The translations under genes were made by a program, and so were the position numbers. This document shows positions 53,098 to 54,399 of a stretch of 64,000 bases of DNA, one piece after another. The notes under the pieces are model-generated. The model was not told the origin of the DNA. It made no database searches and was given only the letters and a program-made list of their open reading frames with translations. Source of the DNA: a virus. The stretch is taken from IMG/VR virus record IMGVR_UViG_3300045988_122518; one strand, 5' to 3'. Within the stretch, counting starts at the first letter, position 1, and every line of letters starts with the position of its first letter.

Positions 53098-54399
53098 ATG
53101 ACTAACATTGAAATAGTTTGGAATTATTTGTATAAACAAATAAAAAACCCTTATGGAACGGCCGGACTAATGGGAAACTTAAAAGCTGAATCAAATTTTA
53201 ATCCAAGAAATCTTCAAAATAGTTTTGAAAAGACACTTGGATTAAATGATGAATAGTATACAAAACAAGTAGATAATGGTAAATATACTAATTTTATTTA
53301 TGATAAAGCTGGGTATGGTTTAGCTCAATGGACCTATTGGAGCCTTAAAAAACAGTTATATGATTTTACAAAAAAGAAGAATACTTCAATAGGAAACTTA
53401 AATACACAACTTGAATTTTTAATTTATCAACTTTCTACATATTATCCTACCGTTTGGAATACTTTAATAAATTGTAAAGATATATAGACTGCTTCAAATA
53501 TAGTCTTAACATAGTTTGAGCGACCAAAAGATTAGAGTTTAAAAATCCAATAGTAGAGATTGTATTATGGAGTTGAAATATACGATCAATTTATAGGAAA
53601 AGGTGAAGATATGAAAATTGTAGATAATTTAACAACATCTAATTATCAAAAAGGTAATAATAGAAAAATAAAATATATTGTAATACATTATTTTGGTTCT
53701 TTGGGGACGGCAAAAAATATTAGTAATTATTTTAAAAATCCTGTTGCTAAATCATCAGCTCATTATTGCGTTGATGAAAAAGATATTATTTATCGTAGTG
53801 TTAAAGATGAAGATATTGCTTGGCACTGTGGCACAAGAAAAGGGTATAAACATCCTAAATGTAGAAATGCTAATTCTATTGGAATTGAAGTAAGACCTTG
53901 TAAAATAAACAAATCTAATATTGTAGCTAGTGATACTGATTGGTATTTTGATCCAAGAGCATTAGAAAATACAATACAATTAGTAAAACAATTAATGTAG
54001 AAATACAATATACCTGCGGACCACGTTATTCGCCACTATGATGTGACTGGTAAATTATGTCCTCGTCCATTATGCGGAACTGATATGAATAGTTATTATA
54101 GAACAAGTGGCGATTACCAATGGTAGTTATTTAAACAAAAAATTGGTGATAATATAAATATTAATGAGGAGGATGAAGATATGACTCAAGATAAATTTAA
54201 TGAAATGATGGAAGTTTATTTAAATCAACAAGCCGAAAAAAATGCAAGTTCTTGGTCTGATACGGAAAGAACTTGGGCTGAAAGTAAAGGATATATTAAA
54301 GGCGATAATTTAAATCGTAAGATGTATAAAAAATTTATGACTCGTGAAGAAATGATTGTAGTTCTTTATAGAATTATGAAAGATAAAGGATTGGTGTAA
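53098..54399 (+). CDS. multidomain endolysin read through 8 in-frame TAG: lysozyme-like domain + Amidase_2 + C-terminal module
   Basis: One frame from ATG 53098 to TAA 54397-54399 with no TAA/TGA; N-terminal GLAQWTYWS...LEFL..QL...FERP (phage lysozyme-like); middle YIVIHYFGS...SAHYCVD...AWHCG...SIGIEV...RHYDVTGKLCPRP (Amidase_2); internal ribosome-binding sites plus ATGs at 53608 and 54181 follow TAG codons. Confidence 0.45.

Follow-up and report, generated by a model that had tools for sequence, protein, structure and literature searches.

We conclude that the 64,000-nucleotide (nt) stretch of viral DNA from IMG/VR record IMGVR_UViG_3300045988_122518, the whole of which we call the window, reads TAG as a glutamine (Gln) codon in only part of its genes, and that this codon is distributed very unevenly among them. 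The gene that first drew attention to the pattern is an endolysin gene (53098-54399, plus strand) whose eight in-frame TAGs are the highest count in the window. In the explanation we favor, to which as a whole we assign a probability of about 0.7, genetic code 15 would be used for a subset of the genes and TAG would be a third Gln codon, arising from CAG by a C-to-T change and decoded by a phage tRNA(CUA). Selection would have purged TAG where translation must use the unmodified host machinery or be very efficient, namely from the replication genes and a block at 22-48 kb, which lie behind a repeated host-type (sigma70-like) promoter, and would have purged it partly from the abundant structural genes. 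In the endolysin and homing endonuclease genes (HEGs), under no such pressure, it would have stayed as frequent as mutation bias makes it. The endolysin with its eight TAGs and the nucleases with one to six each could then be completed only once tRNA(CUA) was mature and charged: with suppression efficiency p and n TAGs, full-length yield would be approximately p^n, which for n = 8 rises from 0.4% at p = 0.5 to 43% at p = 0.9. Both this gating effect and avoidance, rather than positive selection, as the cause of the pattern are what we infer from the observations below.

TAG distribution among gene classes

Open reading frames (ORFs) were called with TAG as a sense codon and annotated with Pfam, PHROGs and NCBIfam, which gave 81 ORFs, 17,597 codons and 69 TAGs. 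These TAGs are over-dispersed both by gene length (chi2 229 versus ~80 expected; 0 of 100,000 simulations reached the value, p<1e-5) and per Gln codon (chi2 142 versus ~65 expected; 0 of 20,000 simulations). TAG makes up 42% of the Gln codons in the five plus-strand HEGs (22/52; 23/64 or 36% with a minus-strand paralog included), 32% in the endolysin (8/25) and 19% in the structural module (21/109), as against 1/171 in the 22-48 kb block and 0/63 in the replication genes. The contrast is also seen among low-GC genes taken by themselves (structural 12/41, replication 0/32) and survives a composition control based on the leucine codons TTG and CTG (below). An earlier first-pass annotation, made from the letters alone, had proposed that TAG is concentrated in lysis and nuclease genes and had set beforehand, as the outcome speaking against this, a density uniform across functional classes after correction for length and composition; uniformity was not seen. 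The genes and blocks concerned are these:

54936-62030, plus strand: TAG-free replication block (promoter 54936-54964, DUF5662 gene, gyrB, small ORF, RNase H gene, gyrA, promoter 60755-60783, ligase gene)
55679-57589: gyrB (Pfam), 0 TAG
57853-58377: RNase H (Pfam), 0 TAG
58346-60721: gyrA (Pfam), 0 TAG
60813-62030: ATP-dependent DNA ligase (Pfam), 0 TAG
51772-53034: PhoH (Pfam), 0 TAG
999-2138: AAA ATPase (Pfam), 0 TAG
22178-47856, plus strand: almost TAG-free block (methylase, DUF2828/DUF7788, major vault protein (MVP) homolog, RNA-repair-type genes, flotillin)
30761-33259: MVP homolog (Pfam), 0 TAG
46471-47856: flotillin/Band_7 (Pfam), 0 TAG
8933-21890, plus strand: structural (tail fiber / Mtd_N-type) module, 21 TAGs in 109 Gln codons, seven of them in 8933-10426
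3172-3768, plus strand: HNH endonuclease gene, 5 TAGs in 8 Gln codons
5238-5840, plus strand: HNH endonuclease gene, 6 TAGs in 8 Gln codons (PHROG HNH families, E down to 3e-28)
29919-30644, plus strand: HEG-like gene with YWxCQCxCG repeats, a PD-(D/E)XK-like C-terminus and a weak DUF2726 match, 2 TAGs
36552-37343, plus strand: HEG-like paralog of 29919, 5 TAGs in 8 Gln codons
42521-43261, minus strand: third paralog of the YWxCQCxCG / PD-(D/E)XK-like family, 1 TAG in 12 Gln codons
62704-63717, plus strand: GIY-YIG endonuclease gene, 4 TAGs in 19 Gln codons

The 63 TAG-free Gln codons of the replication genes are those of the replication block together with the upstream PhoH gene (51772-53034). 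The block at 22178-47856 is interrupted by the HEG-like genes at 29919 (2 TAGs), 36552 (5 TAGs) and, on the minus strand, 42521 (1 TAG). With Pfam identities in hand, the claim that the topoisomerase, RNase H, ligase, PhoH, MVP homolog, flotillin and AAA ATPase genes lack in-frame TAG was confirmed. The statement that each HNH or DUF559 gene carries two to seven TAGs held insofar as the HEG-like genes do carry TAG; their range is one to six, the gene with seven (8933-10426) is not a nuclease, and the DUF559 label was not reproduced, Pfam giving weak DUF2726 matches only. Nor do the structural genes have one or two TAGs each as had been stated, the counts being 0-3 apart from the seven in 8933-10426, which is a Listeria-Bacteroides-repeat protein and probably a tail fiber.

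How exceptional is the endolysin? By length it would be expected to have 1.7 TAGs (P=3e-4) and by its Gln codons 3.3 (P=0.011). Its high count results in part from length and Gln richness, and relative to Gln codons there is no difference from the structural genes (Fisher p=0.18); the tail-fiber-like gene 8933-10426, with 7 TAGs in 19 Gln codons, is as TAG-rich.

Could the distribution reflect expression level only? If TAG were poorly decoded, in competition with host release factor 1 (RF1), it would be lost from strongly expressed genes, early or late, and tolerated in weakly expressed nucleases and the endolysin. Consistent with this, three high-GC and probably abundant structural genes (12450, 13721 and 16388) have TAG at 1/10, 1/24 and 0/8 of their Gln codons, versus the 12/41 of the low-GC structural genes, and six genes with host-like codon usage have no TAG beside 70 CAG codons. 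Yet the replication enzymes, which are not usually among the most abundant phage proteins, are free of TAG, gyrB having none in 69 orthologs (819 Gln codons), and TAG-free status follows promoter type and not codon optimization, as the low-GC replication genes illustrate. We therefore regard an effect of expression level by itself as possible but doubtful.

The six genes just mentioned (28283-29812, 30761-33259, 38835-40211, 46471-47856, 22178-22528 and 62376-62645) deviate from the others in codon usage: CAG outnumbers CAA by 70 to 3, AAG is used far more than AAA, CGT and CTT are preferred, ATA is absent, and TTA (1) and AGA (6) nearly so. They avoid codons read by several phage-encoded tRNAs, and may have been captured recently from the host or adjusted to its tRNA pool. 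The TAG-poor gene 42521-43261, unlike its plus-strand paralogs in this respect, is also the sole clear minus-strand gene of the window. Five short TAG-containing ORFs (5053, 7800, 43234, 44712 and 51506) were judged probably non-coding and left aside, since they have no ribosome-binding site (RBS) or overlap with RNA elements.

The endolysin gene and the meaning of TAG

Translation of 53098-54399 gives 433 codons ending in TAA, with eight internal stops, every one TAG, at codons 53, 130, 139, 146, 152, 153, 301 and 343 (53254, 53485, 53512, 53533, 53551, 53554, 53998 and 54124). The count agrees with the first-pass annotation, as does the tandem TAG-TAG (53551-53556). TAA and TGA are absent from all 433 codons in spite of the AT-rich DNA. 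The predicted polypeptide has three parts:

amino acids (aa) 3-165: Phage_lysozyme2 (Pfam, 92.2 bits, above the gathering score), crossing TAGs
aa 188-324: Amidase_2 (Pfam, 89.3 bits, above the gathering score), crossing TAGs
C-terminal 72 aa: presumed wall-binding domain, with no family match in PHROGs

Six of the TAGs fall in the lysozyme domain. The amidase domain has its TAG at codon 301, ahead of the motif HYDVTGKLCP, which by analogy with T7 lysozyme should carry two of the three Zn ligands. A protein search found thousands of homologs with both Phage_lysozyme2 and Amidase_2, and full-length relatives occur at 95%, 72%, 67% and 52% identity. The most distant of these (P0005, loci L009/L010) is in standard code with no TAG and has an identical lysozyme-amidase-C-terminal-domain layout, and the other three give their database protein only when TAG is read as Q. 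Because the Pfam domains cross TAGs and the standard-code ortholog has an equal layout, 53098-54399 is one gene for one fused lysozyme, amidase and C-terminal-domain endolysin, in line with the fused lysozyme-amidase protein that had been proposed for translation with suppression.

The close relatives (95%), which come from contigs of several human gut samples, retain all eight TAGs and have two more; in one of them (L001) an extra TAG lies two codons past the ATG equivalent to 54181. A pseudogene or assembly error was ruled out, since the same TAGs occur in contigs of several independent samples and the frames are free of TAA and TGA. At 72% and 67% identity the endolysins have 4 and 10 TAGs, mostly at different Gln positions, so TAG changes place as synonymous codons do, and lineages differ in whether a position has TAG or CAA.

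Alternatively, TAG might be a true stop and the region three separate genes or fragments with internal starts. Standard-code ORFs at 53560-54000 and 54181-54399 do exist, with RBS-like sequences ahead of ATGs 53611 and 54181. We consider this very improbable: both Pfam domains cross TAGs, the lysozyme domain would break into six fragments, the amidase piece would lose its C-terminal Zn-ligand motif, no TAA or TGA interrupts the frame, full-length homologs have Q at the positions concerned, and L001 has a TAG two codons past the third supposed start.

The earlier suggestion that a phage suppressor tRNA reads TAG as sense is borne out by the homologs, which have Q at the two TAG columns conserved in the family (139 and 146, in VLLQFERP and PADQS), and by a tRNA(CUA) gene in the window. 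In the standard-code ortholog L009 the first column is a CAA codon and the second codes for H. Q and TAG also interchange in the motif YW[LIK]C(Q or TAG)C[DE]CG of the nuclease-like paralogs. For five TAG-bearing genes aligned with their orthologs in related loci, columns with TAG in the window have TAG 234, Q 38, E 33 and K 14 times, and columns with CAA or CAG have Q 792, K 77 and TAG 71 times. Coding coverage of the related loci goes up with TAG as sense, and the nucleotide following TAG shows no striking difference from that following CAA or CAG. From these comparisons TAG is a Gln codon, decoded, as far as the sequence allows us to predict, by the phage tRNA(CUA).

Is another amino acid conceivable? 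The tRNA is 90 nt long with a class II-like long extra arm, and SerRS and LeuRS ignore the anticodon, so serine, leucine or tyrosine had to be considered. The alignment columns favor Q, then its usual neighbors E and K; S and T are infrequent, and neither L nor Y is among the listed substitutions. The acceptor is Gln-like (weak 1-72 pair, G73), and the loop of the extra arm holds a Gln anticodon sequence, unlike the variable arms of Ser, Leu or Tyr tRNAs. On the alignment evidence a class II identity was rejected, and we judge any of these three readings to have hardly any likelihood.

Promoters and related loci

The sequence TTGATT-N17-TATAAT occurs in ten plus-strand copies (0.15 expected), at 6603 (6603-6631), 26280, 28176, 30694, 33315, 38411, 41800, 43560, 44640 and 60755. 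Each has TAG-free genes 30-80 nt downstream; none was found in the window ahead of the structural module or the lysis cassette. The replication block is headed by a near-consensus sigma70 promoter (54936-54964, plus strand), and the copy at 6603 precedes tRNA(CUA) by ~1 kb, without an intervening terminator. These promoters would fit transcription of the TAG-free genes and of tRNA(CUA) by the host polymerase. The copies are part of a ~45-nt AT-rich cassette, TTGATTTTTT..ATAAAAA..TATAAT, and many directly follow a hairpin.

A gyrB search yielded 70 IMG/VR loci (gyrB 62-100% identical) on contigs of up to ~197 kb, which were analyzed as 20-kb pieces. TAG counts in the orthologs were:

gyrB: 0 TAG in 69 orthologs
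gyrA: 2 TAG in 63 orthologs
ligase: 4 TAG in 26 orthologs
RNase H: 24 TAG in 64 orthologs
PhoH: 47 TAG in 54 orthologs
endolysin: 137 TAG in 18 orthologs, every one with TAG (2-9 over the aligned region)
GIY-YIG nuclease: 335 TAG in 58 orthologs

The contrast between replication and nuclease genes is thus a stable trait of the family, and a TAG-rich lysis gene is common, not universal. The latter was evident from the lysis slot, which in the window is a two-gene cassette bracketed by terminator-like hairpins:

53039-53070, plus strand: intrinsic-terminator-like hairpin and T-run between PhoH and the endolysin gene, leaving 28 nt before the endolysin start
53098-54399, plus strand: endolysin gene
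54401-54796, plus strand: putative holin of 131 aa, directly 3' of the endolysin gene, with two hydrophobic segments and an acidic tail; 0 TAG, 3 Gln codons
54800-54836, plus strand: terminator-like hairpin closing the cassette

The 131-codon membrane protein had no family match in profile searches that included PHROGs, and position and topology make it a putative holin; it stays adjacent to the lysis-slot gene in 56 related loci. Between PhoH and the orthologs of this protein (TM131), the related loci (L020-L080) always have one large gene of 263-865 codons. These genes, which often have the lysozyme or C-terminal domain in common with the endolysin of the window, are domain-shuffled, with either domain kept or replaced while the flanking genes remain constant, and they carry 0-10 TAGs.

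Outside the IMG/VR relatives, gyrB protein matches among annotated phages are at most 43% identical, and a megablast of 44000-64000 against GenBank phages gave no match. The source is a gut phage, and its strong Shine-Dalgarno sites suggest a Firmicutes-type host. In the 95% relative L001 (7645-10596) gyrB is split into parts of 593 aa (N-terminal) and 58 aa (C-terminal) by a GIY-YIG endonuclease gene with 5 TAGs. The gyrB match ends at residues 575-579 in L016-L019, L021, L033, L034 and L053, which suggests an equal GIY-YIG insertion there.

Enrichment or avoidance of TAG

A major question arising from these observations is whether TAG was enriched in the lysis and nuclease genes or purged from the others. 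TAG and CAG differ by a first-position T or C, as do the leucine codons TTG and CTG, so TTG/(TTG+CTG) can serve as a composition control for TAG/(TAG+CAG):

nucleases (HEGs): TAG/(TAG+CAG) 0.92; TTG/(TTG+CTG) 0.88
endolysin: TAG/(TAG+CAG) 0.89; TTG/(TTG+CTG) 1.00, on 4 codons only
structural genes: TAG/(TAG+CAG) 0.48; TTG/(TTG+CTG) 0.68
replication genes: TAG/(TAG+CAG) 0.00; TTG/(TTG+CTG) 0.90
22-48 kb block: TAG/(TAG+CAG) 0.01; TTG/(TTG+CTG) 0.60

The ratios are an indication rather than proof that the nucleases and the endolysin use TAG near the level given by mutation bias and that the other classes avoid it. Because the endolysin value of 0.89 is not above its leucine control, it gives no evidence of positive selection for TAG in that gene.

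The opposite proposal, a strong form of the reading given by the first-pass annotation and by Borges et al., is that TAG was positively selected in the endolysin and nuclease genes as an adaptive timer. Their synthesis would then depend steeply on suppressor activity, which would prevent premature lysis or DNA cutting. Several observations would fit it: the endolysin tops the TAG counts of the window and has the tandem TAG-TAG; all 18 endolysin orthologs carry 2-9 TAGs; L001, L007 and L008 keep 4-10 TAGs despite changes in position; the cassette is surrounded by TAG-free genes, and the terminator just ahead of it leaves no space for a promoter of its own; and the same bias has been published for the amidase and spanin of crAss-like phages and for an intron endonuclease (10.1101/2021.08.26.457843). 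Against the proposal, the TAG share of the endolysin is above neither that of the structural genes nor the mutation-bias expectation, and TAG positions are not conserved past close relatives. In L040/L041/L066 and L050 the lysis-slot gene has 0 TAG in 25-30 Gln codons, although their GIY-YIG gene has 9-10. The adjacent putative holin is without TAG, and TAGs show no significant N-terminal bias within genes (mean relative position 0.41 versus 0.49, p=0.11). We think it unlikely that selection for such a timer produced the pattern.

Avoidance, our preferred reading, has its own difficulties. The counts behind the neutral level are small (24 TAG+CAG codons in the HEGs, 9 in the endolysin), the three-state model takes first-position usage in leucine codons as a fair proxy, and the minus-strand HEG paralog has only 1 TAG in 12 Gln codons. 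Replication-type genes of the relatives are not always without TAG: about half of the related loci have 1-7 TAGs in PhoH, and 14% have 1-3 in RNase H. Early and late timing are inferred here from promoter type and gene function. Lastly, lysis genes of crAss-like phages significantly prefer TAG over CAA/CAG (10.1101/2021.08.26.457843), and positive selection may have acted here as well. The comparison of TAG/(TAG+CAG) with TTG/(TTG+CTG) is a simple control that bears on whether such TAGs are an adaptive lysis timer or a tolerated by-product, and in the window it points to avoidance in promoter-marked genes, not to lysis-gene enrichment.

Comparison with known recoded phages

The pattern itself is already published for other phages and is found here in another phage family. 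Borges et al. (10.1101/2021.08.26.457843) reported that the lysozyme-type amidase and the spanin of crAss-like phages prefer TAG and that in Agate phages an intron endonuclease prefers TGA, with replication genes in standard code. The first-pass annotation had seen a fit to the published hypothesis that recoded stops gate late or lysis genes; the distribution in the window does match that hypothesis, as well as the reported preference of lysis genes and an intron endonuclease for recoded stops. The likeness extends to TAG as Gln with a phage tRNA(CUA), to in-frame TAG in part of the genes only, with structural and lysis genes recoded and replication genes in standard code, to a lysozyme-type amidase and an early-region homing endonuclease being among the most recoded genes, and to related lineages differing in code use. 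There are also differences: the present family is a separate one with no near match among GenBank phages, the endolysin TAG share is no higher than composition would predict, the recoded nucleases stand by themselves as HNH, GIY-YIG and PD-(D/E)XK-like genes and are not an intron ORF, and the TAG-free genes lie behind a repeated sigma70-like promoter.

A second comparison is with phAss-1 and the proposed Phassvirus, TAG-recoded human gut phages of >100 kb with many tRNAs, tRNA-Sup(CTA), TAG as Gln in ~28% of ORFs and no dedicated aminoacyl-tRNA synthetase (Babkin et al. 2023, PMC10607447). Like our phage, phAss-1 is a gut phage with tRNA-Sup(CTA) and TAG as Gln. However, a megablast with 44000-64000 gave no match to it (phage collection expected to include phAss-1), and that paper has no analysis of which gene classes avoid TAG. 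The present, independent family is further evidence that partial recoding of TAG to Gln sets replication genes, in standard code, apart from the structural, lysis and selfish-nuclease genes, which are recoded. It also matters for annotation: the standard code fragments the endolysin, nuclease and tail-fiber-like genes, and the family needs translation table 15.

Homing endonucleases of T4 such as I-TevI are untranslated until late infection, by means of late promoters and hairpins that sequester the RBS. The nucleases of the window may be a parallel in that their genes, too, are embedded in early regions and would be delayed until late infection; the block here would be in-frame TAG codons.

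Internal start sites in the endolysin gene

The first-pass annotation had noted two internal RBS and ATG combinations just past TAG codons. Both sites exist, at 53611 (not 53608) and 54181. The one at 53611 has an ordinary AAGG-type RBS. The other (54166-54183, plus strand) comprises a Shine-Dalgarno sequence GAGGAGG at 54166-54172 and the in-frame ATG at 54181, has the strongest RBS among 280 internal in-frame ATGs, and is a candidate start for the C-terminal domain. GAGGAGG-N8-11-ATG is kept in four recoded lineages (including L001, L007 and L008) as well as in the standard-code ortholog L009/L010, and GAGGAGG is conserved although GAG is the minor Glu codon. Since the site is also present in a TAG-free standard-code gene it is independent of recoding, and the proposed link to TAG does not hold for it. 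That both ATGs lie exactly 18 codons past a TAG was taken as coincidence; in L007 the upstream TAGs are not conserved and the ATG and Shine-Dalgarno sequence are.

It had further been thought that separate domains would be made without suppression. Because both catalytic domains contain TAGs, no active enzyme would be expected without it, and only the 72-aa C-terminal domain could form; in L001 even this domain has a TAG two codons past its ATG. The 54181 site looks like the internal start site of two-polypeptide endolysins, of which CTP1L, CD27L, LysIME-EF1 and phi2638A are examples (PMC4777826, PMC9430671, PMC7098653, PMC12203907). As in those enzymes, a strong in-frame Shine-Dalgarno sequence and ATG lie in the linker before a presumed wall-binding C-terminal domain. 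The known cases are from phages of Gram-positive bacteria, and the strong Shine-Dalgarno sites of the window suggest a Gram-positive-type host. The present case differs in that the short isoform is predicted from sequence alone, that its domain has no family match, and that in L001 the isoform would itself require TAG suppression.

Suppressor tRNA, ribozyme candidate and other RNAs

How might the availability of the suppressor tRNA be controlled? Two elements are adjacent:

7663-7751/7752, plus strand: suppressor tRNA(CUA), 90 nt (ARAGORN; Rfam tRNA, 57.8 bits)
7753-7807, plus strand: candidate minimal ribozyme of the hepatitis delta virus (HDV)-like 'theta' type (full-length match to RF02682, 26.1 bits, E=0.15)

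The tRNA has a U1.U72 mismatch, discriminator G73 and no encoded CCA, unlike most other tRNAs examined in the window, which end in CCA. A weak 1-72 pair and G73 are identity features of tRNA-Gln. In its variable region an extra hairpin (7707-7721) has a 7-nt loop, CUUUGAA, that resembles the anticodon loop of tRNA-Gln. This hairpin is common to ~20 distinct phage CUA tRNAs (loci L087-L125, L133, L143, L145 and L199), with the loop YUCUGAR in others. Changes in its stem are compensatory (UCC/GGA, GCC/GGC, UGC/GCA, CCA/UGG), with double changes in 3/3 pairs and 91.7% of cells paired. A search with the loop motif found 29 long tRNAs having it, 25 with anticodon CUA, and some genomes with the hairpin tRNA also encode a CUA tRNA of normal length. 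We found no description of the variable arm or loop of suppressor tRNAs in the recoding literature searched; one paper on recoded jumbo phages mentions 'introns' in their tRNAs.

The ribozyme candidate scores below the gathering score of RF02682 (26.1 versus 44 bits). By eye, its helices are P1 GGUGCUA/UAGCACU, P2 AAACAAA/UUUGUUU and P3-L3 CC-UCCUCGC-GG. It starts 1 nt past the tRNA end (7751/7752 versus 7753; within 5 nt) and is conserved in L081-L085, where the copies are near-identical and thus without covariation. The predicted cleavage would leave ...G73-C74 with a cyclic phosphate, requiring end-healing and completion of CCA. HDV-like theta ribozymes have been described beside tRNA-Sup in phages whose hosts are about 90% Bacteroidota, with an RNA ligase of the DRB0094 family enriched in phages with tRNA-associated theta ribozymes (Kienbeck et al. 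2024, PMC10879173). Shared with those phages are an HDV-like element 1 nt after a CCA-less tRNA(CUA), a code 15 genome and an RNA ligase with weak DRB0094-family similarity. In the window, by contrast, the Rfam match is below the gathering score and cleavage is a prediction, and the published hosts are mostly Bacteroidota.

A decidedly speculative scheme, which we hold to have a low probability, is that the code switch is controlled through this unusual tRNA. The extra hairpin could act as a Gln-anticodon mimic, so that a tRNA with anticodon CUA would still be charged with Gln, either by GlnRS or by GluRS and GatCAB together. The time at which TAG becomes readable could be set by ribozyme cleavage and by end-healing and addition of CCA through the TAG-free RNA-repair-type genes, with synthesis of the endolysin and the nucleases following the n-th power of that activity.

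An unusual set of cargo genes clustered at 28283-46170, all TAG-free, looks like an RNA repair or processing set. It includes the MVP homolog (MVP shoulder and vault repeat), a DUF2828/DUF7788 protein, cREC_REC, an RlaP-type nucleotidyltransferase, the RNA ligase, NADAR, a macro-like domain, a Pnkp-like kinase and three metallophosphatases. The NCBIfam matches of the RNA-repair-type genes are sub-threshold only.

Other RNA elements were observed in the window. At 23975-24103 and 497-547 there are a RAGATH-33 RNA, above the Rfam gathering score (123 bits), and a twister-P1-like match below threshold (39 bits, E=8e-6). An extra tRNA-like gene at 6332-6415 has an Rfam match (35 bits) and was missed by ARAGORN. 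The 90-nt tRNA at 8326-8415 is Tyr(GTA) according to ARAGORN; the tRNA-Sec model fits it better (43 bits, below threshold).

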